Shown here piece after piece: positions 1-15,595 of a stretch of 30,935 bases of DNA. Where the stretch lies: positions 1-30,935 of the IMG/VR virus record IMGVR_UViG_2802429247_000007; one strand, 5' to 3'. The stretch comes from a virus. Its lineage: Duplodnaviria > Heunggongvirae > Uroviricota > Caudoviricetes. Below the pieces are notes generated by a model that worked only from the letters and a program-made list of their open reading frames with translations, was not told where the DNA came from and made no database searches. Numbering within the stretch: position 1 is the first letter of the stretch; each line of letters begins with the position of its first letter. Both the position numbers and the translations under genes were made by a program.

Positions 1-1119
1 CTAAATGACCAGCTTTACCCATTCCTGGCCGCGAGTGTCGTTGTATCGATCTGTTGTTGCCTGCACCTTGTGGCCCAGTAACGTTTTAGTGTCGATCCCC
101 TGTGCGCGATATAGCCGTTCGGATAAAGAGCGCTGTTCGTGGAATGTGGTTGGCGTTTTTCCTGCTGGTGGAATTATCCCAGCTAGATCCCGTGCTTTGG
201 CAAAGTAGTCGCTCAGGTTGTCTTTACTCATCGGCTTTGGTTGTTTCTGGTGCCGACTATGGATTAGATATGGACTTAATATTCTGTCTCGGCACCCATC
301 AATAACTTCTTTTAACGTTATCCCAATGGCATCACAGCGTAGTGTAAGCGGTAACGCCAGACGCATTCCGGTTTTTCCCTGGGTGATATGCAAGTGTTCG
401 TTCCACACATCTGAAAAACGCATGTGGCAAATGTCATCACGGCGCTGACCAGTTACAATCGCAAGAAGCATTGCGTTACGGATAAAGTGTTTTTCAGGCG
501 TTGCATTGTAAATTTTTTGCCAGTCTTCCAGGGTGAGTCTGGCTCTGGTTACTTTAGGGATCGGTTTACGGGTAGCCTCCGGAGGATTCCATCCAGGAGG
601 AACTTCCCCTGCATGCTGTGCTTCTTTATAAATATCAACCCATAATCCACGATTTACTCTCGCTGTGCTGACCATGTCTTTATCCAGCCACTCATCCAGT
701 ATTAATGCAAAGTCTCTTACTTCCAGTTCTTTCAATGGGTGGCTTCCCAGACGGGAAACCAGGTATGCAGCCATTCGGGCTTTTTCTTTGTGAGTTGTAG
801 CTGCAATATCTCCATTTTTCAGTCGCGCATCCTGTATTTTCAGATATCGATCAACCCATGCCTTTAATCTGATACCCCGACGTTTTGTTGCTGACGGACT
901 TTCATCAATTTTGCGCATGAAATATTCAGCTTCTGCTGCAGCTATTCGCTGATTGGCTGTGGAAGCGATTTTTTCTGCTTTGCCTTTGTCTGTTCCGAGA
1001 CCGTGAAATTTTCCAGTCACAGGGTTTTTATACTGGTAGTAAACCCTGCCAGTTCTGCGATCAAACTTTTCGTAAAGACCGGTTACGTCAGTGCTGTTTT
1101 TTCGTGGCCTCGGTGACAT
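1..1119 (-). CDS. int: Tyrosine site-specific integrase (lambda Int family)
   Basis: 372-aa ORF; C-terminus ...HEQRSLSERLYRAQG...LLGHKVQATTDRYNDTRGQEWVKLVI closely parallels the lambda Int C-terminal catalytic region (R/H/Y motifs). Stop codon at positions 1-3, so the gene is complete. Confidence 0.93.
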   Translation of the reverse strand: MSPRPRKNSTDVTGLYEKFDRRTGRVYYQYKNPVTGKFHGLGTDKGKAEKIASTANQRIAAAEAEYFMRKIDESPSATKRRGIRLKAWVDRYLKIQDARLKNGDIAATTHKEKARMAAYLVSRLGSHPLKELEVRDFALILDEWLDKDMVSTARVNRGLWVDIYKEAQHAGEVPPGWNPPEATRKPIPKVTRARLTLEDWQKIYNATPEKHFIRNAMLLAIVTGQRRDDICHMRFSDVWNEHLHITQGKTGMRLALPLTLRCDAIGITLKEVIDGCRDRILSPYLIHSRHQKQPKPMSKDNLSDYFAKARDLAGIIPPAGKTPTTFHEQRSLSERLYRAQGIDTKTLLGHKVQATTDRYNDTRGQEWVKLVI

Positions 1120-1366
1120 GAGTTAAAATCTCCTTCAGTGCATCATCATCGCCAGTATGAATTTCCGGCGCAATTCCCGTTTCACCAGGTCCAACAAATA
1201 CTGCCCGGCGATCTATCAGCCAACGCCCACGAATTTTTTGTGGTCTTGGAACGATGTATCCTAGTTTTCCGTATTTCACCAGGGTAGTGTTTGTTATTGG
1301 GAGACTGAACCGTTTTGGTTTCCACTCGTCGAGCGTTATCAGGTACTGTTCGCTCATGGCTATCAC
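1088..1366 (-). CDS. xis: Excisionase (Xis-like)
   Basis: 92-aa ORF immediately upstream of int, overlapping its start as in lambda; basic winged-helix-like sequence (TLDEWKPKRFSLP...RGRWLIDRRAVF). Confidence 0.75.
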   Translation of the reverse strand: MIAMSEQYLITLDEWKPKRFSLPITNTTLVKYGKLGYIVPRPQKIRGRWLIDRRAVFVGPGETGIAPEIHTGDDDALKEILTHVTEATKKQH

Positions 1367-1418
1367 TCCGGAACGCGCCAGTTGCAGAATACCAACGACA
1401 ACTGGCGACGGTTGAACA

Positions 1419-3890
1419 TTAAAAATCAGCCTGGCTCGGGATCAGTTTTTGCCAGATAGCTGAAACGTATTTTGCCTGGTAACGGGCGTCATCAAGTGCA
1501 TTATGGCGCTCACCTTCGAATGGAATAGCCGTTCTGGCATCGAAGTCTATGGCTTTCCCCAGTTCAACGATTGTGCGTACATCGCGATCGTTGCAGTAGC
1601 GCCACGGGCAGGGGATCCCCTGCCGTTCGTATGAACGGCGCAAAATCGTGTTGTCGAAGTTGGCTCCATTTCCCCAGACCTGAACAAAAAACTCACCGGA
1701 GTTTTCGTCGATAAATTCCCGCAATTGTAACAGTGCATCATCTAACGGGATTTCATCGGTCATAATGGCAGATTGCGCTTCGCGTGATTGCTTAAGCCAC
1801 CATTTAATGGTGTCCCGATCAATGACTCCGCCAGCAGTTTCCAGATCGATAGTCTTACTAAATTCCGGTCCCATATCTCCGGTTTGCGGATCGAAAAATA
1901 TTGCACCTATTGAGATAATCGGGGCCTCAGGATTTTTTCCCATGGTTTCAAGGTCGATCATTAGATGGTCACACGTCCTGCTGGTGGATGTGATAAAGTG
2001 ATGACCGTTCATCGTAATTAAGGGATCTGCCGTCTCGCCAGTTTCACTATCGCTGGCGTGGTCCTGAGCGCTGCCAGCATTCTCCTTGTGTGGATGTTCA
2101 GCGCCTTCCATTTTCTCCGAATCGTCTTCCTGAACTTCAACCTGGTTCTTGTCATCGAATGTTTCCTGGTATGTTGCGTCGCCCATCACCGCACCACAAT
2201 CAGGGCAGTTGCCGCCACCGCTCTGACCGCAGGCGGTGCAGATCTTTTCCGGTTCCTGTTGCACTACTGGTTCAGGTTGTTTCGTTTCTGGCTCGTTTTG
2301 TTGCGTATTTGGGCTGTTTTGTTCCGCTTTCTGGTCGTTCTGTTCCGTTTCTTGCTGGTTCTGGTTCACAGAATCGCGGGTTTCAATCCCCTTCACCCAT
2401 TTCGGATCATTCGGATCGCTAATCCCTGCAACAAATTCACCACGTGATACTGCAAGCAGTTCATCGGCGTCAGGCTGGCTGATATTGGCTGCCTGCATAA
2501 TTTTGTTTACTTTGTCAGCGGTAACTTTTACCGGCCCTGGTTGTGCGGTCGTGTCAGATGCACCAGTATTTTGTTGTGAACCTGAGTATGTACCGTTTTT
2601 GCGGGCGAAATATTCTTCTTTCGTGATTTCAGTAGCCCCGGCAGCCAGTGCCTTATCCAGACCAGAAAGTTTGTTTGCGCGACCGTATTTTTCGCCACCC
2701 TTGTCGGTGAAGAGGAAGTAGAACGGCCCCTCACGCTCTACAGATGGTTCGACTTCCACTTTGCATTCGGTTTTTTCGTTGTCCGGAATTGCCGTTTCCA
2801 CTGCATCAGTTTCTGGTACTGGCGACGAGAGAGTATCAGTTGCGCTCTGATTTGTTCCTTCATCTTCAAACACGCCCTTTGTAGTCAGGTATTCAGTAAT
2901 GTATTTGTTCAGTGCCACAGGGTCTTTGTGAATGTCGATCGGACGTTCACGGACAAGGCCAAAAATAGTCTGGCGGTCGTAGCGAAGGGCATCAGGCTGT
3001 TTGCGCATTGATGCCGAGATACGCTTCCAGTCTTCGCGGTCGTTGTCGATAACTTCATTTTTTGCCCAGCGATGGATGCTGCCGTCAATGTTTCCGGCAT
3101 CCACATCACCAGGCCAGAGAGCGTAGGCCAGTTCGTCATCCAGTGTTTTCCATGTCTGCTTGTATTCGCGATGAGTGGCAGCAATGACCGGGTTGATTTT
3201 TCCTGTTGAATTTTCAGTGTGCTGTTGATTGGCTCTGGCGCGGGCGAGATCAACAACAGACGTGTATTTTCCGGTTTCCTTGCGTTCACCTTCGCGACGT
3301 TTTTTCCAGATGCGCATCTCTGCCTGAATTTCGGGCCATTTGGCACCAGGCTTACATTTATGCTTAACCCACCCGATGGCATGCAGCTTAAGCTCCGGAT
3401 ACATGGCGTTAACTTCTGGCATTTTCATCAACGCTTCAACGATATGGCCGTCGAATGTTGCCATGTCTTCCTGCAACAATTCCTGTGCGCTAATCACCAT
3501 ATCAACAGTGATGTTTTCACATGTGTCGAACTTAACCATGACAGCGTTCTGTACTTCAGGGGCTAGGTTGTCAAAAGTGACGTTCATCGGATCGGATTCA
3601 GTCTCGACCGGGACAAAGGAAGCAGACGCCTCATCCCAGCGGTTTTCCTGCATATATTCAGCATCCCAGGAATCGAGGGCAGGGCGGGGTATACCGGGTT
3701 TATCCTCGCAGACAAGAAATTTATAAGCGCAGTCCTGAGCAGCCGGATAATGTTCCAGGAATTGCCAGTGAAATTTTGCGCGTGCGCGACGTTCATCACC
3801 GGCTTCAATGGCAGTGGCTACAGCGACTGCACCTTCTTCCTTTATTGCCTGTTCGTCCGGAATGGCGGCGCAAATAAAGACTTTACTCAT
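1419..3890 (-). CDS. Large early-left exonuclease: C-terminal DnaQ/DEDDh-like 3'-5' exonuclease domain, central Zn-ribbon (CTACG...CPDCG) and Q/E-rich low-complexity linker
   Basis: 823-aa ORF; C-terminal motifs DLETMG...WGNGANFD...HNALDDARY match the Exo I/II/III arrangement of DEDDh exonucleases. Sits where lambda exo / Rac recE lie. Confidence 0.7.
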   Translation of the reverse strand: MSKVFICAAIPDEQAIKEEGAVAVATAIEAGDERRARAKFHWQFLEHYPAAQDCAYKFLVCEDKPGIPRPALDSWDAEYMQENRWDEASASFVPVETESDPMNVTFDNLAPEVQNAVMVKFDTCENITVDMVISAQELLQEDMATFDGHIVEALMKMPEVNAMYPELKLHAIGWVKHKCKPGAKWPEIQAEMRIWKKRREGERKETGKYTSVVDLARARANQQHTENSTGKINPVIAATHREYKQTWKTLDDELAYALWPGDVDAGNIDGSIHRWAKNEVIDNDREDWKRISASMRKQPDALRYDRQTIFGLVRERPIDIHKDPVALNKYITEYLTTKGVFEDEGTNQSATDTLSSPVPETDAVETAIPDNEKTECKVEVEPSVEREGPFYFLFTDKGGEKYGRANKLSGLDKALAAGATEITKEEYFARKNGTYSGSQQNTGASDTTAQPGPVKVTADKVNKIMQAANISQPDADELLAVSRGEFVAGISDPNDPKWVKGIETRDSVNQNQQETEQNDQKAEQNSPNTQQNEPETKQPEPVVQQEPEKICTACGQSGGGNCPDCGAVMGDATYQETFDDKNQVEVQEDDSEKMEGAEHPHKENAGSAQDHASDSETGETADPLITMNGHHFITSTSRTCDHLMIDLETMGKNPEAPIISIGAIFFDPQTGDMGPEFSKTIDLETAGGVIDRDTIKWWLKQSREAQSAIMTDEIPLDDALLQLREFIDENSGEFFVQVWGNGANFDNTILRRSYERQGIPCPWRYCNDRDVRTIVELGKAIDFDARTAIPFEGERHNALDDARYQAKYVSAIWQKLIPSQADF

Positions 3891-3982
3891 TTTGTTTTAC
3901 CTCATTACAGATTTAAGGGTGAACAAATCCCTGCCATTGCTGGCATATAAGAATGAAATCGGATGTTTATTACGGAACTGTT

Positions 3983-4228
3983 TTAAAGACCTGCCGGGAT
4001 TTCGTTATTATCCTGGTGAATAACTTTATCGACCGGGTAACAGTTACCGGGAATTTTCTGTTCGGTTGCTGCAGTCACACACTCCTGCATTGTCCTGTGA
4101 ACACTGACTGCAATATCAACTGGCTCTCCGGAAACAAGAAAAACTGTCAGAACAAGTGCAAATGCTGTATTCATTGCCAGCATCCTTTTTGTATCGGACG
4201 TAAACGAGCCAGCATTGAAAGAATGCAT
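3983..4228 (-). CDS. Hypothetical small secreted or membrane protein (signal-peptide-like N-terminus); alternative start at 4174 (MNTAF...) has a better RBS (aaaggatg)
   Basis: ORF in early-left operon orientation; hydrophobic stretch AFALVLTVFLVSG followed by a Cys-containing mature part. Confidence 0.35.
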   Translation of the reverse strand: MHSFNAGSFTSDTKRMLAMNTAFALVLTVFLVSGEPVDIAVSVHRTMQECVTAATEQKIPGNCYPVDKVIHQDNNEIPAGL

Positions 4229-4464
4229 ATTTTATTTAATAACTCCCGTTCGTGTTTTCTTTTGTTAATGGCATCTTCAGTAAATACAGGGTTACTGATA
4301 GTGACACCAATTTCAAAACAACCTTCAGACGTATTAACGTTTGGTAATAACGTTTCCATTATCGCGTCCTCAACAATGAATTTTGTGATGCAGTGCCTGG
4401 TGCCTCCAGGTGACGTTAACCAGTTAACAATTAACGCCGGATACAGAGAATCCACCCATAACAC
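4171..4464 (-). CDS. Hypothetical protein (GTG start, weak evidence)
   Basis: 97-aa ORF in operon orientation; no recognisable motif; start uncertain. Confidence 0.22.
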   Translation of the reverse strand: MLWVDSLYPALIVNWLTSPGGTRHCITKFIVEDAIMETLLPNVNTSEGCFEIGVTISNPVFTEDAINKRKHERELLNKICILSMLARLRPIQKGCWQ

Positions 4465-4919
4465 TGTTTTTGGTTTTAACTGTTCCGCGTGCGCTCAGCC
4501 GCATTCACCACATCACAAAATTCACTTTAAAAAGGGCGGCAGAGCAGTCACGGAGTAAAACTGATACCGCCAAACGTCACCAGAAAATTGATAACAGAGG
4601 GCGTTGCAGCGGGGTTGTCACTTAAGCGTATGGTCAACCTGACAACCCGGTGTCCTCAACGGGGAAGGAATAACCCCGCCATACTTACCGCCGCGCCATT
4701 TCGCGGAGTGCCACAACCGGAAGCGCACGGTCGACGAAAATTTAACGACAGGCTATCTATGAACCAACTACCTCGCCGTGCGCTTTCGCGTTATGGTCTG
4801 ACTTTTCAGGGAAATATCCTTTCAGTAAACTGTCAGTGCCGGATGTTCACCCGTGTCCGGCGCACGCACTCCACCTCACCCGTGGAGAACTCCTTAATTA
4901 CCAACCCTCAGGAGGGTGA

Positions 4920-5153
4920 ATGTTAAAATCAACTCTTATTGCTAAATGCCTTTATCAAAATCGCATGGTAAGCAGCATTTCAATAGGCGAGTCTGCAGTT
5001 AAAAGTATTTTCGAAGAGTACTTTCCCGGGCATGATTTTAATAAATGGAATACCAAATTACCGCCAGCAGTTTCAACGCGTATTCTGAAAGCAACTGAAA
5101 GAGCAAGTACAATTCGCGTTAACTATTTCATTAAAGATTTGTGGGATCTTTGA
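4920..5153 (+). CDS. Hypothetical 77-aa protein, opposite to operon direction
   Basis: Strong Shine-Dalgarno (aggagggtga) 5 nt upstream of ATG; AT-rich; 3' end overlaps the convergent 135-aa ORF. Confidence 0.3.
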   Translation: MLKSTLIAKCLYQNRMVSSISIGESAVKSIFEEYFPGHDFNKWNTKLPPAVSTRILKATERASTIRVNYFIKDLWDL

Positions 5154-5538
5154 TATCCACCGAGCCTAAAGTATGTGCATATGGATGTGCTATTGTGCGC
5201 CCTCGCAGATTTGCATCATTTTCTAAATTCACTGAACGAAACAGGGCATCAACAAGACTCTGTACAATGCAAAGGCAATCGAAGAGTGTTGCTGTTTCTG
5301 TTTTGATTGATGAAAGAACATGGCCATTCACGCAAACAGAAATTACCCGTTCATTAACGTCGCTTTCCTGCTTTTGATTATCAGAACCATATAGCCCAGA
5401 AAAAGCATTGCGCACATTACGAACCATATTATCGATGGTTTCTTTTTTGGTGTATGCCGGGTCAATTTTCACCAGACTATCACCGAGAGTCGTTGCAGCA
5501 ATTGTCTGGATTTCTTTTGGTAAATCTTTAAATTCCAT
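5131..5538 (-). CDS. Hypothetical early-left protein (135 aa)
   Basis: ORF in operon orientation, tightly packed with neighbours; no recognisable family. Confidence 0.45.
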   Translation of the reverse strand: MEFKDLPKEIQTIAATTLGDSLVKIDPAYTKKETIDNMVRNVRNAFSGLYGSDNQKQESDVNERVISVCVNGHVLSSIKTETATLFDCLCIVQSLVDALFRSVNLENDANLRGRTIAHPYAHTLGSVDIKDPTNL

Positions 5539-5560
5539 TATTAGCCTTGTTGGTTAGCTA

Positions 5561-5779
5561 TTAACGTGGGTATGTAATCATTCTGGCAATGCTTAATGCC
5601 GCTGCTTTTTCCAGATTGGTGATATCCTGCTCCAGAGCGGACAGATTTTCAGCCTGCTTAGCCCTGGCTTCATTGGCCCATTTCAGATCCTGCGCTGCAT
5701 TAATTTTCTGGCGCATCCACTCATAAAGTTCATCATCGGTATAGTCTGGCGCGATGATGACGGGTTCTCGTTTCTGCAT
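5561..5779 (-). CDS. Hypothetical small helical protein (72 aa); possible Kil-like host-interaction protein
   Basis: Good RBS (gaggaa) upstream of ATG; position corresponds to kil/host-interaction genes of Rac/lambda. Assignment is by position only. Confidence 0.45.
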   Translation of the reverse strand: MQKREPVIIAPDYTDDELYEWMRQKINAAQDLKWANEARAKQAENLSALEQDITNLEKAAALSIARMITYPR

Positions 5780-5808
5780 ACTGATTCCTCGCGGTGCTGC
5801 TTCGCTTA

Positions 5809-5937
5809 TCAGCCGTTAGATTTTGCCGAGCTGGAAAGCGCCTGTTTAAACTCACTGAAGCTGAGAGCTTCTTCGCCTTCGGCAAGGCCTTCGAAGTATT
5901 CTTCGTAAGCCTTTTCCATGATTGTGTCGAAATCCAT
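5809..5937 (-). CDS. Small acidic protein (42 aa, MDFDTIMEKAYEEYFEGLAEGEEALSFSEFKQALSSSAKSNG); below the ORF-track size cutoff
   Basis: Hand-translated; start codon 2 nt downstream of the stop of the upstream gene (operon packing); resembles tiny Rac-type prophage proteins from memory. Confidence 0.4.
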   Translation of the reverse strand: MDFDTIMEKAYEEYFEGLAEGEEALSFSEFKQALSSSAKSNG

Positions 5938-5938
5938 A

Positions 5939-6175
5939 TCACTCACCTGAGTTTCTTTCCAGCCAGCGACGGGCACCATTTTCGGTTTTAAACGTTTTGC
6001 TTTTGGTATACGTCATCGCGGTGAATGTGCCGTCCTGGTTGGGAAACACGCCGTACACCAGAGATTCGTTGTTGCCAAGATCGATAGTATCCATGTTGAC
6101 CTCATTTCCCCTTAACGCCGGGGTAGCGGAACAAAAACCTGCTGCATAGTTATTAAAGTTGAACCCTGCCGTCAT
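5939..6175 (-). CDS. DUF1391-like small prophage protein (YdaF-like); likely true start at internal Met, giving 5939..6094 (51 aa)
   Basis: Sequence MDTIDLGNNESLVYGVFPNQDGTFTAMTYTKSKTFKTENGARRWLERNSGE recalled as a Rac-type small protein; RBS (gagg) precedes the internal ATG. Confidence 0.5.
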   Translation of the reverse strand: MTAGFNFNNYAAGFCSATPALRGNEVNMDTIDLGNNESLVYGVFPNQDGTFTAMTYTKSKTFKTENGARRWLERNSGE

Positions 6176-6273
6176 GTTCTTACGCCTCGGGCTGGCTACT
6201 TAACCCCTGACCACTGCCTAGTAACTCGAAGTATTACCCTGCATTCTGTGGGGTGGGGTGAGGGAATGAATGA

Positions 6274-6302
6274 AGTTTAGAAAAATGAACTTTTCAGGTC
6301 AA
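6274..6302 (-). promoter_or_regulatory. Candidate early-left promoter (pL-like): -35 TTGACC, 17-bp spacer, -10 TAAACT on minus strand
   Basis: Hexamers read directly from the reverse complement; lies between cI and the leftward early genes. Confidence 0.45.
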
Positions 6303-6303
6303 T

Positions 6304-6319
6304 GTTTTTTTATCAAAAC
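6304..6319. promoter_or_regulatory. Candidate operator OL: 16-bp inverted repeat GTTTT-TTTATC-AAAAC
   Basis: Same GTTTT-N6-AAAAC architecture as the two sites in the cI-cro intergenic region; abuts the pL -35. Confidence 0.45.
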
Positions 6320-6386
6320 ATTTTAAGCAGGCAGCTGTTAAGCCATCATCACGATGGCATACAGTTAATCAAATAGATGAGGTTGG

Positions 6387-7025
6387 TTAAATATCTTGTT
6401 GAATTTTAAAGCATACGCCCAATATGCAAGATAGATCATCCAGCATAATTGAAGGGTAGCGAGGATTCGTGGGGACTAAAAGAATATCCGGCCCTTCTAT
6501 CTCCAGTTTACGAATGACAGGTGTTGTGGTCCCTTTGGGTAAGGCAAGGACAATATTTCCTGGTTGTACGGTTCGATCGGGATCAACAAAAACTGTTGAA
6601 CCATTTGGGATGGAAACTCCCCCACCAGATGTTGACATACTGTCACTCTCTAGAACAACTGCAAAGGTATTGGCCGGGATTTCTCCGACAAGCTGCACAC
6701 AAGAGGTTATTGAGGAATTTTTCATATAATCACTCCAGCTTGCTGCCTGCTGAAGTGATAGTAGCGGAACCGTTTTTATCGGCGGTAAAGATAGATCAAG
6801 CGAATCACCTGTATTTAACTCTCCTCCATTAAGAAGCCAATTTTCGTTTACTTTCAATATCTTTGCCAGTGAACTTATGTAACGCGAGGACGGCGCTCCT
6901 CCACCGTTCATCCATTGACTTACGGAGCCTTTTGATGCGCCAGTGGCATTGACAAGGTCTTTGCCTTTCAGGTTTAGCGCATGCATACGTTGGGTTATGC
7001 GTTCAGATATTGTTTGCTTGCTCAT
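6387..7025 (-). CDS. cI: cI-like prophage repressor (N-terminal HTH, C-terminal S24/LexA-type autopeptidase domain)
   Basis: 212 aa; HTH region (LKGKDLVNATGASKGSVSQWMNG); C-terminal S24-like region. No leader or SD before the ATG. Confidence 0.92.
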   Translation of the reverse strand: MSKQTISERITQRMHALNLKGKDLVNATGASKGSVSQWMNGGGAPSSRYISSLAKILKVNENWLLNGGELNTGDSLDLSLPPIKTVPLLSLQQAASWSDYMKNSSITSCVQLVGEIPANTFAVVLESDSMSTSGGGVSIPNGSTVFVDPDRTVQPGNIVLALPKGTTTPVIRKLEIEGPDILLVPTNPRYPSIMLDDLSCILGVCFKIQQDI

Positions 7026-7041
7026 GTTTTGATTTTAAAAC
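7026..7041. promoter_or_regulatory. Candidate operator (OR3-like) GTTTT-GATTTT-AAAAC overlapping the pRM-like -10 (TAAAAT, minus strand, 7032-7037); implies leaderless cI mRNA
   Basis: 16-bp inverted repeat directly abutting the cI start codon; -10 hexamer ends 6-7 nt from the ATG. Confidence 0.45.
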
Positions 7042-7058
7042 ACAGATGGTTTTGTTTC

Positions 7059-7088
7059 TTGACTTTCTTTGGTTTTGATTATTAAACT
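7059..7088 (+). promoter_or_regulatory. Candidate pR: -35 TTGACT (7059-7064), -10 TAAACT (7083-7088), with operator GTTTT-GATTAT-TAAAC (7072-7087) over the -10
   Basis: Read directly; same -10 hexamer as the pL candidate; operator copy has one mismatch to the palindrome. Confidence 0.45.
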
Positions 7089-7116
7089 TTTGGCGTTCAG
7101 TTTTATGGAGCGACTC

Positions 7117-7359
7117 ATGAAAAAATCAGAAGTATTAGGCTATTTTGGCGGAGTTGTTAAAACAGCCGCAGCTCTAGGAACGTCAAAAACCACAGTCAGC
7201 ATGTGGGGGGAAGAGGTTCCGTGGAAATGGGCGTTGCTAATTCAGGCAGTCACTGCCGGGGCGCTCAAATATGAGTTACACATACCGACGGTTGTCATTC
7301 CCGGTTCTGATCATAATCCGCCTTCTAACCAAGGGGGGATTCATGAAAATCAAGCATGA
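7117..7359 (+). CDS. Cro-like HTH regulator (YdaS-like)
   Basis: Start at ATG 7117 (MKKSEVLGYFGG...) preceded by ggag; small HTH protein divergent from cI. Confidence 0.75.
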   Translation: MKKSEVLGYFGGVVKTAAALGTSKTTVSMWGEEVPWKWALLIQAVTAGALKYELHIPTVVIPGSDHNPPSNQGGIHENQA

Positions 7360-7768
7360 ACACATCCGCATGGCGATGAATGCCTGGGCGCGTCCTGATG
7401 GCGAAAAAGTTCCAGCAGCTGGAATAACCCAGGCTTATTTTGAGTTGGGTATGACGTTTCCTGAACTGTATGACGACAGCCATCCGGAAGCCTTGGCTCG
7501 CAATACCCAGAAAATTTTCCGCTGGGTAGAGAAAGACACCCCTGATGCAGTTGAAAAAATTCAGGCGTTGTTACCAGCGATCGAAAAGGCAATGCCACCT
7601 TTGCTGGTGGCCAGAATGCGCAGCCACAGTTCAGCTTATTTTCGGGAGCTGGTGGAGACGCGGGAGCGATTGGTGAGAGACGCTGATGATTTTGTCGCAG
7701 TGGCAATCGCCGGTTTCAATCAGATGAACCGTGGTGGCCCGGCAGGAAATGCTGTGGCAGTACATTGA
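7343..7768 (+). CDS. YdaT-like protein (cII-position regulator)
   Basis: ATG at 7343 with RBS aagggggg; overlaps the cro-like gene by 17 nt; sequence resembles Rac YdaT from memory. Confidence 0.55.
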   Translation: MKIKHEHIRMAMNAWARPDGEKVPAAGITQAYFELGMTFPELYDDSHPEALARNTQKIFRWVEKDTPDAVEKIQALLPAIEKAMPPLLVARMRSHSSAYFRELVETRERLVRDADDFVAVAIAGFNQMNRGGPAGNAVAVH

Positions 7769-7839
7769 CTGACAATAGCCATATCGAATCGCTTCCGGCA
7801 ACTCGTGAGTAAAAAGATTCGGTATCAGAAGAGGTGAGT

Positions 7840-8934
7840 ATGGCTAACGCTTGGCTCAGATTATGGCATGACATGCCAAATGACCCTAAGTGGCGAACAA
7901 TTGCCAGGGTGTCAGGGCAGCCAATTGCAACAGTGATGGCAGTGTATATCCACCTCCTGGTGAGCGCGTCACGAAATGTCACGCGAGGTCACATTGATGT
8001 CACGACAGAAGATTTGGCAAGTGCGCTCGACGTGACAGAAGAGGTAATTGATTCAATTTTGCAGACGATGCAGGGGCGGGTACTTGATGGTGATTTAATC
8101 ACTGGATGGGAAAAACGCCAGGTGCTTAAAGAGGACAACGGCAATATTTCGCAAACCGCAAAATCTCCTGCAGAGCGCAAGAGGGCGCAGCGAGAGAGGG
8201 AAAGAAAGCGGGAACAAAATGGCGATTGTCACGGCGCGTCACGAAATGTCACGCACATGTCACGACGAGTCACGACAGATAAAGATACAGATAAAGATAC
8301 AGATAAAGATACAGATAAAGATACAGATCAAGAAGATCAAAACACTATGGTCCATGGCGTAAAAAACGCCACGAACCAGGCAGGGGATGTTCAGACCGTC
8401 AATCTTGGTCAGCCAGCAGGCACGACACCGGAAGCCGATTCAGCGTATGCGCTGAAAGCCGATTCGGGCGCTGTGCAGCAGGTGATGACCGCAAGGCCGG
8501 AGCAATCACACCAACTGCAGCAGCCTGAAGCCGATTCCGCCATTCAGCGGGAAGCCGATCGGGTAGTCCCGGAAAACACCGGGCAGCCTGTGGGACGAGT
8601 AGATTATCCGGATGTGTTCGAACAGGTCTGGCGGGAATACCCGTTGCGTGCTGGGGCAAACCCGAAGAAATCCGCTTTCAGTGCCTGGAAGGCCAGATTA
8701 CGCGAGGGGGTGCCACCAGAGGCCATGCTGGATGGTGTGAGGCGTTACGCAAGATACCTGGCGGCTACCGGGAAAACGGGAACGGAATTTGTTCAGCGAG
8801 CGACGACGTTTTTTGGACCGGACCGGAATTTTGAAAACCCCTGGTTGCTCCCGGTAAGCGGTACGAACAACCAGCGTTGTGTGAATCATATTTCTGAACC
8901 GGATACCGAAATTCCACTGGGCTTCAGGGGGTAA
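7840..8934 (+). CDS. Replication initiator (O-like / YdaU-like) with C-terminal DnaT-like domain; contains internal iterons and a (DKDT)4 repeat
   Basis: RBS agaagagg before ATG 7840; N-terminal region typical of phage replication proteins; C-terminal YPDVFEQVWREYPLRAG...FFGPDRNFENPWLL. Confidence 0.75.
   Translation: MANAWLRLWHDMPNDPKWRTIARVSGQPIATVMAVYIHLLVSASRNVTRGHIDVTTEDLASALDVTEEVIDSILQTMQGRVLDGDLITGWEKRQVLKEDNGNISQTAKSPAERKRAQRERERKREQNGDCHGASRNVTHMSRRVTTDKDTDKDTDKDTDKDTDQEDQNTMVHGVKNATNQAGDVQTVNLGQPAGTTPEADSAYALKADSGAVQQVMTARPEQSHQLQQPEADSAIQREADRVVPENTGQPVGRVDYPDVFEQVWREYPLRAGANPKKSAFSAWKARLREGVPPEAMLDGVRRYARYLAATGKTGTEFVQRATTFFGPDRNFENPWLLPVSGTNNQRCVNHISEPDTEIPLGFRG
7964..8004. repeat. 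Iteron-like cluster 1: four GTCAC(G/A) motifs at about 10-11-bp spacing
   Basis: gcgcGTCACGaaatGTCACGcgagGTCACAttgatGTCACG; 21-bp block gcgcgtcacgaaatgtcacgc recurs in cluster 2. Confidence 0.6.
8228..8275. repeat. Iteron-like cluster 2: five GTCACG motifs at about 10-11-bp spacing
   Basis: GTCACGgcgcGTCACGaaatGTCACGcacatGTCACGacgaGTCACG; helical-phase spacing. Confidence 0.6.
8278..8325. repeat. Perfect 12-bp tandem repeat (GATAAAGATACA)x4, in-frame, encoding (DKDT)4
   Basis: Read directly; A/T-rich and immediately downstream of iteron cluster 2. Confidence 0.9.
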
Positions 8935-8974
8935 GTGTGTATTTCTGGTCATGAGGTAATTTTCAGGAGGGCTT

Positions 8975-9397
8975 GTGGCAAAAGTTTTTACACAAGAAGA
9001 GCGGGAAAAAATTAAAGGGCAGGTTCTTGAACTCGTACGCCAGAGTGGGCGCGAGACGTTACGACAACTGGAAGCTAAAACTGGGGCAACAAGATATCTG
9101 ATGAGCGTTCTGGCCAGAGAGCTGGTTGCCAGTGGCGATGTATACAACTCTGGTTACGGGTTATTCCCGTCTGAACAGGCGCGTAAGGACTGGCAAAATG
9201 CCCGTAAAAAGCTCTCAAGGGCAAAGCTGAAGAAACCATCTGCGGTTGATCCGGACCTTATCTGGTCATTACCTGATGGAGAAATACGTCGTTACGACAG
9301 GCGTCATAATATAATTTGTACTGAGTGTCGTAAAAGCGAAGTTATGCAGCGGATATTGTCGTTTTATCAGGGGGATGTTCGGTATTTTTTGAAGTGA
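8975..9397 (+). CDS. Hypothetical protein (140 aa), GTG start with strong RBS (aggagg)
   Basis: Occupies the position of the helicase loader (P/DnaC) but is too small and shows no such motif. Confidence 0.5.
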   Translation: MAKVFTQEEREKIKGQVLELVRQSGRETLRQLEAKTGATRYLMSVLARELVASGDVYNSGYGLFPSEQARKDWQNARKKLSRAKLKKPSAVDPDLIWSLPDGEIRRYDRRHNIICTECRKSEVMQRILSFYQGDVRYFLK

Positions 9398-9589
9398 CGA
9401 GATTAAAGTGCATTAGTTCAGATGTAAATTGACATTTTGTGGCACAGGGTAGAGCTAGCGTGGTTGTCCGCTTTGTGCCAGAAGCGGAAGTTGCTTACAT
9501 CGTGCTATGTTAGTTTAATGGGAGCAGGTAAAGGGGGGGATTCCCCAGTAATTCCCCATAGCTTCCCTACCAGGAAGGTAGGCATAAAA

Positions 9590-9620
9590 AACCAGCAATA
9601 ACAGGCTGGTTTATATAATC
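9590..9620 (-). terminator. Stem-loop (aaccagc/gctggtt, 7 bp) with flanking A and T runs; functions best as a minus-strand terminator just 3' of the tRNA fragment
   Basis: Hairpin read directly; T-run immediately follows the stem in minus orientation. Confidence 0.5.
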
Positions 9621-9624
9621 TTTT

Positions 9625-9673
9625 TGGTCGGCACGAGAGGATTTGAACTTCCGATCCCCGACACCCCATGACA
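9625..9673 (-). tRNA. Degenerate 3' fragment (about 48 nt) of a tRNA-Pro gene (anticodon loop through CCA); not a complete tRNA; att-site-like remnant
   Basis: Minus-strand sequence gtcatggggtgtcggggatcggaagttcaaatcctctcgtgccgacca matches the 3' half of E. coli tRNA-Pro(GGG) from memory with about 2 mismatches; the 5' half is absent. Confidence 0.6.
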
Positions 9674-9965
9674 CTGCTTGTAAAACGCTGAGAGCCGCGC
9701 TATTGCTGGTTAAAAGCACTATTCATATGTATAAACAAACAGTGCTTTTTCAACAAAATCTGCTCTATATACTTCAATGGCTTAAGTGGTGGTTTCTCCC
9801 CATGCTTGGTAGGTATAATACCTTGATGCTAAAGTAGGTTACTCACTTGAAGAAACAGCTAGTTAGTATCAATTATGTTGCTCCAGCTGACTGAAAAAAG
9901 TTATCAATGATGCATGGAACATACGCCCTTGAATTTTTCATTAGATTTTAGAAAAGGAATTGAGC

Positions 9966-10847
9966 ATGGGTTTAGCTGAGTGGTTTTGCGGATTTTGCTC
10001 CAATCTGACTGTAAAAGATGGTGGAACAATTTCAACTAGATATAGGAATATAACGAAGCGTTTAAATACGGATTTTTGGGATAGCAGTTCTGATACTTCT
10101 CATAGTCTCTACGTTGGATCATATGGTCGGAACACAGCTACGCAAGGCTTGAGCGATCTGGATATGATTTTTCAGCTACCATATTCCGAGTATCAAAAAT
10201 ACAATAGCTACTTAGGAAATGGGCAGTCAGCATTGCTTCAAGCGGTTAAGAGATCTATTGAAAAAACCTATGCTACCACTAGTATTAGAGGTGACGGTCA
10301 AGTGATCCTTGTACCGTTCAATGATGGAATTACATTTGAAGTCGTTCCAGCTTTCCTCAATGTTAGTGATAGTTACACATTTCCTGATGCGAACGGTGGT
10401 GGCCGTTGGAGGATTACAAATCCAAAGCCAGAAATTTCTGCAATGAGGTTAAGAAATAACATTACCAATAACAATTTGGTGCAACTTTGTAGAATGGCAA
10501 GAGCTTGGAAGCGTAAATGGGATGTACCTATAAGTGGTTTACTCATTGATACGCTTGCGTATCAATTCATTGAAAATTGGGCGCATAGAGATAAGTCGTA
10601 TCTTTACTACGATTTCATGAGTCGTGATTTCTTCAAATGGATGGCTGATCAAGATACGAGTAAGGAGTATTGGAAAGCGCCAGGAAGTGGTCAGTATGTC
10701 TATGGTAAAGGGCTTTTCCAATATAAAGCAAAACGGTGCTATAACATTTCACTCGAAGCTATAGAGCATGAAATGGCGACCCCAAAACGCGAATGGTCGG
10801 CTAAGCAAAAATGGCGGGAGATTTATGGATCAACATTTCCAGACTAA
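9966..10847 (+). CDS. SMODS-type (cGAS/DncV-like) nucleotidyltransferase, CBASS cyclase candidate
   Basis: Motif GSYGRNTATQGLSDLDMIF (GS-x9-DxD) plus downstream acidic [DE]hhP-like motif (NDGITFEVVP); RBS aaaaggaa before ATG 9966; AT-rich relative to flanking phage genes. Confidence 0.72.
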   Translation: MGLAEWFCGFCSNLTVKDGGTISTRYRNITKRLNTDFWDSSSDTSHSLYVGSYGRNTATQGLSDLDMIFQLPYSEYQKYNSYLGNGQSALLQAVKRSIEKTYATTSIRGDGQVILVPFNDGITFEVVPAFLNVSDSYTFPDANGGGRWRITNPKPEISAMRLRNNITNNNLVQLCRMARAWKRKWDVPISGLLIDTLAYQFIENWAHRDKSYLYYDFMSRDFFKWMADQDTSKEYWKAPGSGQYVYGKGLFQYKAKRCYNISLEAIEHEMATPKREWSAKQKWREIYGSTFPD

Positions 10848-11406
10848 GGATACACCTGAATCTAGAAGGGTTTTAGAAGGGCAGATCAGAGAGTGTTATG
10901 GTCGGGTCGTTTACTCACATAAGACGCATGAAAAATGCTCAGACATTCTCCTATCTCGACTATCTTCTATAAAGTTTTGGCAAATAATTCTCTCCGCCTT
11001 AACTACTGGAGGCTTTCTAGCAACTTTTTTCGGCGCGGGTGAAGTAGGCACGGGGGTTGGGATTGTTGTTTCAACACTGCTTCTCATTCTTAACGCTTAT
11101 ACCAAAGATTATGACCTTGGTGAGTTGGCGCAAAAACATAAGCAGGCTGCAAATGAGATCTGGTTAATCCGAGAAAAGTATTTATCATTGCTTACAGACT
11201 TAGCAATGGGTGAAAAACCAATCGAGCAATTGCAGTCAGAGCGGGATTCGTTACTCGAGAGTTTACATTCAGTGTATTCAGGCTCTCCTAGTACAACATT
11301 TGAAGCTTATAAAAAAGCACAGGACGCATTAAAAAACAAAGAAGATTTAACATTTTCTGAAGAAGAAATAGATGCTTTTCTTCCCAAGGAACTGAAAAGA
11401 AGATAA
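10825..11406 (+). CDS. SLATT-like two-transmembrane effector
   Basis: Start overlaps the end of the upstream gene by 23 nt; two hydrophobic helices (IKFWQIILSALTTGGFLATFF and GTGVGIVVSTLLLILNAY) followed by a charged helical tail. Confidence 0.7.
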   Translation: MDQHFQTKDTPESRRVLEGQIRECYGRVVYSHKTHEKCSDILLSRLSSIKFWQIILSALTTGGFLATFFGAGEVGTGVGIVVSTLLLILNAYTKDYDLGELAQKHKQAANEIWLIREKYLSLLTDLAMGEKPIEQLQSERDSLLESLHSVYSGSPSTTFEAYKKAQDALKNKEDLTFSEEEIDAFLPKELKRR

Positions 11407-11417
11407 ATATGTTGCGA

Positions 11418-11450
11418 GGGCAAATATAAATATTTGCCCCTATTTTTTTA
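11418..11450 (+). terminator. Intrinsic terminator: perfect 9-bp stem (gggcaaata/tatttgccc) followed by a T-run
   Basis: Read directly; 12 nt after the SLATT stop. Confidence 0.7.
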
Positions 11451-11547
11451 TTTGTTAATATTAATTTTAGCAGGGCTAACTTTCCGGTAAGAATTAATTA
11501 CTGGTCATATGCTCCTTGGTTAATAAAATTCTATGCCTTACTTGGTG

Positions 11548-11931
11548 CTAGCTGGCTTTAATTTCTCCATGTGGAACTACAACCCAGTCGATATGGTTTT
11601 GCGTGTAGATTTTAGTTGATTTCGCATCGCTGTGTGCCATTCGTCCTTGTGGATCGATGCCCTGCTGATCAAAAAGATGTGCTGCTAAGGCGCGAATTTC
11701 GTGAAAGGTTGGCCTTTCATCCATCGGCCGTTTGTCATATAAACCCAGCTTGTCACGCGTAGCTGAAAACGACCGACTCAAATAGTCTGGTGCAACTTGA
11801 GTGGGATGAGAAACTTCTTTGCTGCGTTTAACCTGCCGTTCCGGGATCTGGTGAACGATAAATGGGCTGGCCACGTTATTGCGACTTTCATCAATGATCC
11901 GCTTCAATTCGTCACCAATCGGTGACCGCTA
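11548..11931 (-). pseudogene. Truncated tyrosine integrase (C-terminal catalytic fragment only, about 125 codons; in-frame stop at 11929-11931 upstream)
   Basis: Fragment ...TFHEIRALAAHLFDQQGIDPQGRMAHSDAKSTKIYTQ aligns with the C-terminus of the intact int at 1..1119 and of lambda Int; no N-terminal or core-binding region. Confidence 0.78.
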
Positions 11932-12101
11932 CATGACGGGAACGCTTACAATCTATTAATGTCTACTAAGTGCTAGGAGCGGACATTGGTTAATGGGGAT
12001 ATGTCATTCGCCTGGGGCAGATCAAGAAAGTAAAAATCCCAGCTGTCGATAATTGGAATCCATGATAAGGTTTACGGGTAACTGATTGATAAATAAATTG
12101 A

Positions 12102-12299
12102 ATGGAATATGGAAAAATGACAAAGTCAATAGCGGATAAATCTGTAACTGATTTAACTAAAGAAATCGATAAATTAAAGAAAATTGCCAAAGATCTTGAA
12201 GATGTATTACCAGAAAAAACACCACAAATTAATTCAGCAAAAAAAATCATTGACGATGCAATAAACGAAAGAGAAAAAGAGATAGAAAAGCGTTTCTAA
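12102..12299 (+). CDS. Hypothetical small K/E-rich helical protein (likely start 12117, MTKSIADK...)
   Basis: ORF followed by a terminator-like hairpin; AT-rich tract; the antisense ORF 11990..12250 is judged spurious. Confidence 0.3.
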   Translation: MEYGKMTKSIADKSVTDLTKEIDKLKKIAKDLEDVLPEKTPQINSAKKIIDDAINEREKEIEKRF

Positions 12300-12323
12300 G
12301 CATAACAATAGACTAGTCTCTGG

Positions 12324-12352
12324 GAGGCCGTACCAGCGGCCTTTCTTCTTCC
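12324..12352 (+). terminator. Terminator-like hairpin (ggccg/cggcc) followed by T/C-rich tract
   Basis: Read directly downstream of the small ORF. Confidence 0.4.
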
Positions 12353-12966
12353 CGTAATCTAGTAAAATCGTCGGTTTTTAATCAATTAATTAACTCATCT
12401 ATTACCAACTCCTGGTTGGTTGCTAATGATGTCATAGTGTCGCTAACGGCCTGAATTACTCAGTCCGTTCTTCGCTCAAAGCGGGCTAGAAGGTTAGCTT
12501 GCGTCGGACTTGGCGTATTTAAAGAAGTGCTGGTGGTGACAGGTTATTATGTTCCATTTCTACAGAACAAAATCACAGAAACTATACCCAATAGTTGTAT
12601 TGAATCACTGACGAGACAGCCTCATATTTATCAGGACTGGTGTACGTCCAATACAGGAGGTTGTGGTGCTGGTTCTCAAATGTGCGCTGGCTATTGCTGC
12701 TGTAATGGCAATTTATTGCCTTGCTGTTGTTCTTATGGATCGCCTTTCTGACTGATTTCATATTGGCGAGGTAACGGGAGTTAAGTAGAATGGCTGCGGG
12801 TGCTTGAGGCTATCTGTCTCAGGCATGAACACCAAAGGCAGATAGAGAAAAGCCCCAGTTAACATTACGCGTCCTGCAAGACGCTTAACATTAATCTGAG
12901 GCTCAATCTATGCTGAACACATGTAGGTTAGCCTCTTACGTGCCGAAAGGCAAGGAGAAGCAGGCT

Positions 12967-13122
12967 ATGAAGCAGCAAAAGGCGATGCTAATCGCCCTGA
13001 TCGTCATCTGTTTAACCGTCATAGTGACGGCACTGGTAACGAGGAAAGACCTCTGCGAGGTACGAATCCGAACCGGCCAGACGGAGGTCGCTGTCTTCAC
13101 AGCTTACGAACCTGAGGAGTAA
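12967..13122 (+). CDS. hok: Hok/Gef-family type I toxin (51 aa); in-frame upstream extension from 12910 is Mok-like
   Basis: MKQQKAMLIALIVICLTVIVTALVTRKDLCEVRIRTGQTEVAVFTAYEPEE is a canonical Hok-family sequence (recalled as RelF/HokD-like); upstream leader resembles the hok mRNA 5' elements. Confidence 0.88.
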   Translation: MKQQKAMLIALIVICLTVIVTALVTRKDLCEVRIRTGQTEVAVFTAYEPEE

Positions 13123-13264
13123 GAGACCAGGCGGGGGAGAAATCCCTCGCCACCTCTGATGTGTCAGGCATCCTCAATGCACCCACACTTAACCCGCTTC
13201 GGCGTTTTTCCGTTGATTAACTCTATTATCAGAGAACCGAACTTTTACTGATGGGGGCAGGGAG

Positions 13265-13657
13265 ATGAAGAAACTTGTTTTAGTTGCAGGTGTAATGATT
13301 GCAACAGTAATGTTGGGAGGGTGTGCAGCAAAGATCGATCCTGCGTTGAAAGCAGAAGCAATGAAACCACTAACATGTAAAGATGAAAAGCAATGTGACT
13401 TTTATTGGAAACGAGCGCAATTCTGGTTGGCTAATAATTCCTCATGGAAAATTCAAACGGCGACAGACACGCTAATTTCCACTTATAACCCTTCACCAAA
13501 TAGCCCATTCCTCGCTTATCAAGTGAGTAAAATGCCAAATGAAGATGGATCTGCAAGAATTTTCATCAAGCCTTTTTGCGATAATATGTTTGGCTGTCAA
13601 CCAAACCCCTATCAGGCAATTGTTTCCTTTAAAAACTTCGTTAAAACTGGGCAGTAA
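13265..13657 (+). CDS. Lipoprotein (signal peptide plus lipobox LGGC), function unknown; moron candidate
   Basis: N-terminus MKKLVLVAGVMIATVMLGGCA; mature part with 4 further Cys; own RBS (gggagatg). Confidence 0.7.
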   Translation: MKKLVLVAGVMIATVMLGGCAAKIDPALKAEAMKPLTCKDEKQCDFYWKRAQFWLANNSSWKIQTATDTLISTYNPSPNSPFLAYQVSKMPNEDGSARIFIKPFCDNMFGCQPNPYQAIVSFKNFVKTGQ

Positions 13658-13786
13658 TGTATAGCGGGACGGTAAATTATTAGTGAAAACGCTGTAAACC
13701 CTATGGATTGAGTCAGGATTTAATCCGATAATTATTCTATCGTTCCTTTACAAGTCCGGCATATTACCTTCAGTTTGTTTTAGCAT

Positions 13787-13812
13787 ACCCGCTTCGGCGG
13801 GTTTTGTTTTTT
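13787..13812 (+). terminator. Intrinsic terminator (acccgc-ttcg-gcgggt followed by T-run)
   Basis: Read directly; lies inside the N-terminal extension of ORF 13804..14157, so that gene's real start is downstream. Confidence 0.65.
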
Positions 13813-13884
13813 TCTGGCATTCTGGTTTACAATACGCACGCCAGCCTGAACAACTGGCACCTGCTGCGCCAGCAGAGACAACCG

Positions 13885-14157
13885 ATGGCGCACAATACCA
13901 AACATCACAATTCTGATACCGACCTTGCCAGCAGGCACGGGCTGCGTTCTCACGCATTCAAATATGACTGGTATCAGCACGATCCCTGCACTGAAGAACA
14001 GGCCGAATGGCTGATTCATAACTACCGCAGACGTGGGTATGAGTTTAAGAAAGCCCTTAGCCTCGACTACCGTCACTGGATAATCTACGTCAGGCTCCCT
14101 TATTCCGAACGCCCGCCGCGTCCATCCCGCACATTCCAGCAACGCATCTGGAGGTAA
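13885..14157 (+). CDS. Hypothetical nin-region protein (90 aa from Met at 13885)
   Basis: Stop is 2 nt before the GTG start of the next gene; start chosen downstream of the terminator. Confidence 0.4.
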   Translation: MAHNTKHHNSDTDLASRHGLRSHAFKYDWYQHDPCTEEQAEWLIHNYRRRGYEFKKALSLDYRHWIIYVRLPYSERPPRPSRTFQQRIWR

Positions 14158-14158
14158 C

Positions 14159-15214: not shown

Positions 15215-15595
15215 ATGACTGAGCGCATAGAATTTGTTTTGCCTTACCCGCCGTCGGTGAACACCTACTGGCGCCGTCGTGGTGGCGTATATTTTGTATC
15301 AAAAGCCGGTGAGCGTTATCGCCGGGATGTGGCGCTTATTGTTCGCCAGCAGCGACTGAAATTAAATCTGTCCGGTAGATTGGCAATCAGGATTATTGCA
15401 GAGCCACCGGATAAGCGCCGCCGCGACCTGGACAATATCCTGAAGGCACCACTGGATGCACTGACACATGCAGGACTGCTTATCGACGATGAGCAGTTTG
15501 ACGAAATCAATATAGTGCGCGGTCAGCTCGTTCCTGGTGGTCGACTGGGCGTGAAAATTTACGAAATAATGCATGACGGGCAGGTCAATAAATGA
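15215..15595 (+). CDS. rusA: RusA Holliday-junction resolvase
   Basis: 126 aa; conserved RusA-family sequence (PPSVNTYWRRRGG...RRDLDNILKAPLDALTHAGLLIDDEQ). Confidence 0.92.
   Translation: MTERIEFVLPYPPSVNTYWRRRGGVYFVSKAGERYRRDVALIVRQQRLKLNLSGRLAIRIIAEPPDKRRRDLDNILKAPLDALTHAGLLIDDEQFDEINIVRGQLVPGGRLGVKIYEIMHDGQVNK

Follow-up and report, generated by a model that had tools for sequence, protein, structure and literature searches.

The window analysed here is the whole stretch of 30,935 nucleotides that makes up positions 1 to 30,935 of IMG/VR record IMGVR_UViG_2802429247_000007 (Caudoviricetes), and the gene under study encodes a single 823-residue protein from its minus strand, which closes the series of large genes in the leftward early operon, of the dicBF type, in a lambdoid prophage resembling Qin, mEp460 and Tritos. 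An earlier note on this DNA had described the protein as ending in a DEDDh 3'-5' exonuclease domain, preceded by a zinc ribbon and a long low-complexity linker, and as occupying the position of a recombination module although no annealase could be recognised within or near it. The layout of the gene is given below, with residue numbers of the predicted protein; pLDDT is the predicted local distance difference test score of structure models and dN/dS the ratio of nonsynonymous to synonymous substitution rates.

1419-3890, minus strand: exonuclease open reading frame (ORF) of the intact YdfE type, a RecE-like scaffold plus a DEDDh domain; 823 residues, ATG start
3201-3890, minus strand: YdfE-specific head, residues 1-230, with an alpha/beta part (about 1-95) and a helical part (about 105-227)
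2856-3173, minus strand: helical module common to RecE (RecE residues about 278-360), residues 240-345, from BLASTP against RecE and domain mapping
2586-2738, minus strand: small beta-hairpin/helix domain between disordered linkers, residues 385-435 (pLDDT 90-96)
2250-2390, minus strand: Q/E/N-rich low-complexity linker, residues 501-547, from composition (pLDDT below 50; dN/dS 0.34-0.40)
2193-2240, minus strand: putative zinc ribbon, CxxC-x7-CxxC, residues 551-566, then an acidic linker to residue about 636
2017-2466, minus strand: RecE-homologous segment, residues 475-624 (RecE residues 455-590), with 76% DNA identity to K-12 recE in blastn
1452-1967, minus strand: DexA/Rv2179c-family DEDDh 3'-5' exonuclease domain, residues 642-813 (Pfam PF16473)

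In a profile search PHROG 2082 ('exonuclease') matches residues 1-823 of 823 with an E-value (E) of 0, and a newer Pfam release assigns YdfE_N (PF27430), YdfE_C (PF27432) and the Rv2179c-like family to the exact protein, in assembly GCA_002965185.1. The corresponding gene of the Qin prophage in Escherichia coli K-12, ydfE (b1577), is a pseudogene interrupted by an IS2 element, everything beyond residue 256 being gone, the nuclease included; K-12 YdfE residues 1-256 are 96% identical to the window protein, which by this alignment is the intact form of that pseudogene. That the window gene should itself be a pseudogene remnant can be discarded, since E. coli, E. albertii, E. ruysiae and phage Tritos all have it with an uninterrupted frame, and purifying selection acts on its domains. 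A chance match is likewise excluded, as the full-length PHROG match with E=0 goes along with dN/dS values of 0.03-0.22 in the folded domains where dS is measurable. When a coverage of at least 80% is required, a ydfE-type gene is found in 3532 of 5426 complete E. coli genomes (about 65%), at a median of two places per genome, and by the same measure the K-12-type segment holding the recE nuclease and recT is found in 1728 of the 5426. The same gene is carried by Tritos, a viable phage of 46.4 kb. Current annotations call the gene product '3'-5' exonuclease', 'exonuclease' or, wrongly, 'exodeoxyribonuclease VIII'. The gene is an already catalogued and extremely common prophage gene, and does not represent a new kind of system; this family identity and its prevalence, as well as the homology to RecE over residues 262-626, had escaped the earlier note.

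The assignment of the C-terminal domain is clear. PF16473 (Rv2179c-like 3'-5' exonuclease) matches residues 642-813 with E=4e-67 and 225.8 bits against a cutoff of 27, over profile positions 2-177 of 177, and RNase_T gives a weak Pfam match in the protein. The catalytic pentad is complete, with D646 and E648 in DLETMG, D746 in NGANFD and H796 and D801 in HNALDD, which correspond to the three Exo motifs, and these residues align column by column with D7, E9, D119, H186 and D191 of T4 DexA, whose structure (PDB 8KEL, E=1.7e-6) is the only solved one that is detectable by sequence. The motifs quoted in the earlier note are thus real, and the catalytic residues, on whose retention in a proper alignment its reading had been made to depend, are all kept. 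The dN/dS of the domain is 0.11-0.22. In one relative of 752 residues with a RecE-type head and a DEDDh domain (P0231), the glutamate of Exo I is replaced by lysine (MVDLKTMG) and the aspartate of Exo II by alanine (SFANV), so that this protein is probably catalytically dead.

The region preceding the nuclease has a different affiliation. In BLASTP, residues 262-626 align to RecE 278-592 with E=2e-60, the identity being 38% overall and around 75% over the last 150 residues, a stretch which includes the zinc-ribbon motif and the acidic linker. At the DNA level the similarity to recE stops at residue 624, about 15 residues before the position of RecE residue 606, which we take, from the crystal construct 3H4R, to be the start of the RecE nuclease domain. 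The boundary at residue ~624 is, as judged from these alignments, a mosaic junction placed just ahead of the nuclease domain. The NCBIfam equivalog model of RecE (PRK09709) matches residues 445-626 only, with 278.4 bits against a cutoff of 1269, and Pfam Exonuc_VIII (PF06630) has no match in the window protein, the similarity to RecE ending at RecE residue 592. Because the equivalog match is confined to this segment and falls far below the cutoff, the protein is not RecE but a RecE scaffold equipped with a different nuclease.

An AlphaFold2 model of the N-terminal region, obtained from an 80-sequence alignment, has a mean pLDDT of 87.6 and shows confident domains at residues 1-210, 241-345 and 385-435 with disordered linkers between them. 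The helical module at residues 240-345, with pLDDT above 92, is better conserved than any other non-catalytic part of the family, and A257, P260, D262, R274, K277, S292, R296, L302, I309, F310 and R314 are invariant in it; the small domain at residues 385-435 is present in several relatives and absent from K-12 RecE. Foldseek comparison of the N-terminal model with PDB and BFVD gave no significant match, and a profile search of PDB sequences with the N-terminal alignment returned only a weak match to the RecE nuclease, which came from the RecE-type rows. With the full-length model no PDB entry was found below E=0.9, a search in which even the poorly modelled DEDDh domain was missed. No fold or profile of the Redbeta/RecT, Rad52, ERF or RecA-core type was detected in the N-terminal scaffold by Foldseek against PDB and BFVD or by the PDB profile search, in agreement with the earlier claim that the protein contains no recognisable annealase of the RecT/Bet/Erf type.

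The linker reported as rich in Q, E and N does have this composition, with 24% Q, 16% E and 13% N over residues 501-545. The zinc ribbon was borne out in part: the cysteine motif C551-x2-C554...C562-x2-C565 is present and conserved in K-12 RecE, but the Pfam DZR match at residues 548-569 lies under the threshold (E=0.11), the pLDDT there is low and the motif is missing from most DEDDh-type relatives; we regard a zinc ribbon at residues 551-566 as plausible. In respect to selection, analysed by comparison with homologues from E. ruysiae, E. albertii, another E. coli and phage Tritos, the low dN/dS of the folded domains goes along with values of 0.34-0.77 in the linkers, again where dS is measurable. 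The head and the shared module have 0.07-0.19 as against 0.11-0.22 for the nuclease, and residues 385-435 range from 0.03 to 0.28 across comparisons, being lowest at the largest dS; the scaffold is constrained at least as strongly as the nuclease. Along the gene, dS towards one homologue varies about tenfold, from 0.05 in the DEDDh domain to 0.5 in residues 346-435 (loci L006, L007 and L089 compared), which indicates repeated recombination between alleles inside the gene.

The exchange of nucleases on this scaffold is evident across the family. A search with residues 1-345 in 1.84 billion representative proteins retrieved only 176 clusters, and among 63 long relatives of the N-terminal region Exonuc_VIII occurs in 23, DUF3799 (PDDEXK-like) in 14 and the Rv2179c-like family in 9, where the first two counts may overlap. 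By domain mapping, all four combinations of a YdfE-type or RecE-type head with a PD-(D/E)XK or DEDDh nuclease occur, and all share the module at residues 240-345. In a collection that represents each species by a single genome, the DEDDh domain occurs at 80 loci; at 23 of them, from different Enterobacterales species, it is part of a fusion of 640-850 residues, and at about 50 it forms a free-standing protein of 180-200 residues. The 118 same-strand neighbours of the 23 fused loci comprise, by Pfam, 23 integrases and 23 helix-turn-helix (HTH) regulators, an integrase lying downstream at 23 of 23 loci; RecT, ERF or Rad52 were found among these neighbours at none of the 23. Two loci that combine a YdfE head with a RecE-type nuclease (L118 and L119) have a RecT-family gene directly downstream (Pfam E=1e-39 and 9e-30). 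RecT thus accompanies the PD-(D/E)XK cassette in the three loci compared, Rac, L118 and L119, and is absent from all 23 DEDDh fusions. A phmmer search of the 80 loci with E. coli RecT and lambda Bet found none, a weak negative since this approach missed the two divergent RecTs found by Pfam. The missing annealase is thus characteristic of the gene family as a whole and no peculiarity of this window, which supports the earlier suggestion that the locus may not be a classical Red-type module.

The other features of the leftward operon and its borders are as follows.

6387-7025, minus strand: CI-type repressor with HTH and S24 peptidase domains, its gene adjoining the leftward early genes on their upstream side
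5131-5538, minus strand: 135-residue protein of the same operon, PHROG 1363, with no significant Pfam match
4534-4585, minus strand: DicF small RNA (Rfam RF00039, 76.7 bits against a gathering score of 48)
4171-4359, minus strand: dicB, cell-division inhibitor (Pfam DicB, E=6e-37)
3983-4174, minus strand: ydfD-like DUF1482 protein
1088-1366, minus strand: excisionase, directly downstream of the exonuclease gene (Pfam Exc, E=8e-5)
1-1119, minus strand: tyrosine integrase of 372 residues (Arm-DNA-bind_1 and Phage_integrase)

Leftward from the repressor the order is DUF1391 (ydfA-like), ydfC, the 135-residue ORF, DicF, dicB, DUF1482, the 823-residue gene, xis and int. DicF is full length and lies between the 135-residue ORF and dicB; together with dicB this indicates an intact dicBF operon, and the early, lysis and structural genes of the prophage are also apparently intact. 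A promoter and terminator scan of positions 900-7400 found no more signals than shuffled sequence does and yields no transcription-unit boundary.

No annealase was detected by Pfam in the early-left ORFs scanned, ten in number and reaching from xis to the cII-like gene, nor by PHROGs in the early-right region at 7834-16413, which encodes a replication initiator, a Ren-like protein, a DUF968/HNH protein, the RusA resolvase (15215-15595) and Q. Among window ORFs of at least 40 residues, phmmer found no match to RecT, Bet, lambda Exo, Gam, Abc2, a Rad52-like annealase or the single-stranded DNA-binding protein (SSB), this test being weak for divergent annealases. The small ORFs at 3983-5538, which the earlier note had proposed to examine for annealing-protein folds, correspond to DUF1482, DicB and the 135-residue protein and gave no evidence of an annealase; the last of these as a hidden annealase is unsupported, having no Pfam, PHROG-function or PDB sequence match. 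The statement that no annealase ORF lies nearby has thus held up in all three scans, and the complete genome of phage Tritos has no annotated annealase. The window lacks the attributes of a two-component recombinase, as no adjacent annealase of the RecT/Redbeta, ERF, Rad52/Sak or Sak4 type was found and the nuclease is of the DEDDh type, with no PD-(D/E)XK homologue of lambda Exo.

The early-right region also holds, between the replication genes and hok/sok, a pair of genes for a cyclic-oligonucleotide-based antiphage signalling system (CBASS) at 9960-11406 on the plus strand. Its 295-residue product matches, over the full length, an oligonucleotide cyclase (PADLOC PDLC00786, E=5e-144) and the overlapping 212-residue product matches a two-transmembrane (2TM) effector (PDLC00696, E=1e-84); the guanine plus cytosine fraction drops to 0.40-0.42 in this stretch, which looks like a moron insertion. 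The sok antitoxin RNA at 12798-12972 on the plus strand (Rfam RF01794, 115.6 bits) points to a toxin-antitoxin locus of the hok/sok type.

A distinct arrangement is found for the free-standing homologues. Protein gp34 of phage epsilon34, with 182 residues, is 56% identical to the C-terminal domain of the window protein and belongs to an early-left module comprising the Rad52-family annealase gp36 (Pfam E=5e-25), the SSB gp35, the exonuclease gp34 and the Abc2 protein gp33. In P22-like phages the order ssb, free-standing DEDDh gene and abc2, downstream of a Rad52-family annealase, is seen at L090 (3775-5855, which is epsilon34) and also at L039 (168-1029), L037, L057 and L060. The HK620 module described by Hutinet et al. 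has no free-standing DEDDh exonuclease, and we found no experimental work in the literature on a DEDDh exonuclease as the fourth component of a P22-like module. At a minority of the free-standing loci the neighbours include SSB (4), AAA_24 (3), ERF (2) and Rad52 (2), as well as RdgC. The AAA_24 family presumably covers Sak4-type recombinases. The commonest neighbour, at 6 of 51 free-standing loci, is DUF2303, encoded by upstream ORFs of about 275 residues (L020, L025, L033, L034, L038 and others), and YfbR-like 5'-deoxynucleotidases adjoin four loci, forming with DUF2303 a recurring gene set. The occurrence of free-standing homologues within P22-like annealase modules indicates that a module which is not of the classical Red type need not be unrelated to recombination.

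Taken together, the DNA exonucleases DexA and EcD (the latter a free-standing E. coli homologue of DexA), the epsilon34 module, the scaffold shared with RecE and the genomic slot suggest that proteins of the YdfE type may carry out 3'-5' processing of DNA ends during lytic growth and pass the products to host recombination and RusA, a role to which we would give about an even chance. The DEDDh domain would remove nucleotides from the 3'-OH ends of DNA by two-metal hydrolysis, like T4 DexA, and the scaffold would deliver it to the substrate or partner of RecE, i.e. to linear duplex DNA ends during lytic growth. There the nuclease would most probably shorten protruding 3' strands, whether tails or flaps, on phage DNA ends or on recombination intermediates, the latter then passing to host recombination and the phage RusA resolvase. 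As no annealase is encoded, single-strand annealing of the Red or RecET type by YdfE alone is not expected. That the gene is carried by a viable phage, Tritos, also speaks for such a role. For T4 DexA itself, PMC12153337 describes roles in scavenging of host DNA and intron homing, the latter requiring cleavage of phage DNA.

A number of points weigh against this proposal. The literature yielded no experiment on the YdfE protein or on any full-length relative, and both the 3'-5' polarity and the preference for DNA over RNA would follow from family membership, in a family (PF16473) that is named after a mycobacterial exoribonuclease. In the full-length model the DEDDh domain has a pLDDT of only about 40-70, the alignment being dominated by RecE-type relatives; since it is modelled poorly, the DEDDh fold rests on sequence evidence. 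A benefit for recombination is not obvious either, as RecA and annealases work on 3' tails, and these would be lost to a 3'-5' exonuclease. Furthermore, the N-terminal domain of RecE is described in the review PMC11611040 as being of unknown function, and EcD (PMC12153337) provides an experimental precedent for a defence role within the family.

This precedent leads to the alternative that the protein serves in superinfection exclusion or defence, as a nuclease of the HREX/EcD type, which would shield the lysogen by degrading modified DNA on entry, for instance the 5-hydroxymethylcytosine (5hmC) DNA that T-even phages contain; we consider it unlikely. According to Kang et al. 2025 (PMC12153337), EcD cleaves 5hmC DNA and the T4 genome but leaves unmodified double-stranded DNA uncut at 25 °C, and its leaky expression is already enough to make E. 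coli resist T4. DicB, encoded in the same operon, is reported to protect against phage infection, and the prophage carries the CBASS pair. However, the positions of 5hmC recognition differ: the same paper reports W152 and D169 of DexA as required for cleaving T4 DNA but not unmodified DNA, and where these residues stand, with W132 and E145 in EcD, the window protein has C766 and K779. For this comparison the EcD sequence was recovered from IMG/VR by means of the forward primer of that paper, the gene differing from the printed reverse primer by one base; it has 189 residues and its A78 aligns with D90 of DexA, as published. The aspartate whose loss reportedly makes EcD a dimer only is kept in the window protein (D718, at the position of DexA D90), and EcD is only 37% identical to the window domain. 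In addition, the gene lies in the early-left operon beside a CI-type repressor and is presumably repressed in the lysogen, and no PADLOC defence model matches the exonuclease save a generic DEDDh profile (E=1e-5). Judged by the criteria of PMC12153337, applied to the aligned residues, the protein is not an HREX enzyme; a part in defence by some other route is conceivable.

A second possibility, which we hold to be doubtful, is that the N-terminal scaffold is the main actor, by binding DNA ends or a host factor or by counteracting RecBCD, while the nuclease is an exchangeable accessory. The constraint on the head and shared module, at least equal to that on the nuclease, is in agreement with it, as are the combination of the scaffold with either nuclease, the absence of a phmmer-detectable Gam or Abc2 homologue from the window and the report, in review PMC11611040, that full-length RecE outperforms its nuclease domain in linear-linear recombination. 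The P0231 protein, with two catalytic positions substituted (E to K and D to A), also hints that the scaffold might have a nuclease-independent role. Nevertheless, nearly all relatives keep the nuclease intact, no structural or sequence similarity of the scaffold to any characterised protein was found by Foldseek or profile searches, and such a role is speculation on the available data.

It is also conceivable, but in our view improbable, that proteins of the YdfE type represent, in lambdoid phages, an annealase-independent pathway for DNA ends with the opposite, 3'-5' polarity, in which the scaffold would target a host factor or DNA ends and the DEDDh domain would remodel the 3' ends; here the scaffold might tether ends, counteract RecBCD or obstruct a defence system. 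If true, this would provide a function for the approximately 560 residues that precede the nuclease in RecE, and would explain the roughly twofold prevalence of the YdfE allele over RecET in the genome counts given above (3532 against 1728 of 5426).

Finally, an RNA exonuclease trimming or turning over RNA 3' ends, for example those of the dicBF transcript, DicF or host RNAs, is very unlikely: although the best Pfam family is named for the 3'-5' exoribonuclease Rv2179c of M. tuberculosis and the gene appears to share an operon with DicF, in an arrangement matching the K-12 dicBF operon, this reading relies mainly on the family name, whereas T4 DexA and EcD, which among characterised proteins are nearest in sequence, are exonucleases acting on DNA, the DEDDh domain is interchangeable with the RecE DNA nuclease on one scaffold, and free-standing copies adjoin SSB, annealases and Abc2.

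With DNA-end processing as the preferred reading, the gene deserves attention in being among the commonest prophage genes of E. coli, often present more than once in a genome and found in about twice as many genomes as recET, and in sharing its scaffold with RecE, the basis of RecET recombineering. The question is thereby framed as what the scaffold does and what use a 3'-5' exonuclease has at phage DNA ends. The present analysis adds the identity of the gene as intact YdfE, the mosaic junction with RecE, the pattern linking RecT to the nuclease cassette, and the observation that the scaffold shows no annealase fold and the nuclease none of the reported 5hmC residues. The stakes are modest, relating to possible recombineering tools, to insight into DNA exchange between prophages and to the reach of DexA-family defence into prophage proteins.

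In comparison with known systems, lambda Red sits at the corresponding genomic position, with the early regulators on one side and xis/int on the other, but the window has no Exo, Bet or Gam homologues and presents a single protein of predicted opposite polarity. T4 DexA is likewise a phage-encoded 3'-5' DNA exonuclease with the DEDDh pentad, yet it is free-standing, with 227 residues and extra loops, and its identity to the window domain is about 28-33%. EcD and HREX share the domain family and the catalytic residues, EcD being free-standing whereas the window domain is fused to a 640-residue scaffold. In epsilon34, gp34 lacks the scaffold and has the SSB, Abc2 and Rad52-family partners that the window protein lacks. 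RecE (exonuclease VIII of Rac) resembles the window protein in its early-left slot just before xis/int and in being a large multi-domain protein with the nuclease at the C-terminus; it differs in that this nuclease is a PD-(D/E)XK 5'-3' double-stranded DNA exonuclease, in contrast to the predicted DEDDh 3'-5' one, and in its first 230-270 residues, which are unrelated to the head of the window protein. In Rac recE is followed by recT, while an excisionase gene occupies this position in the window. The closest counterpart is the Qin prophage of K-12, with which the window has in common the operon order ydfA, ydfB, ydfC, dicF, dicB, ydfD, ydfE and int, the copy of ydfE in the window being complete.

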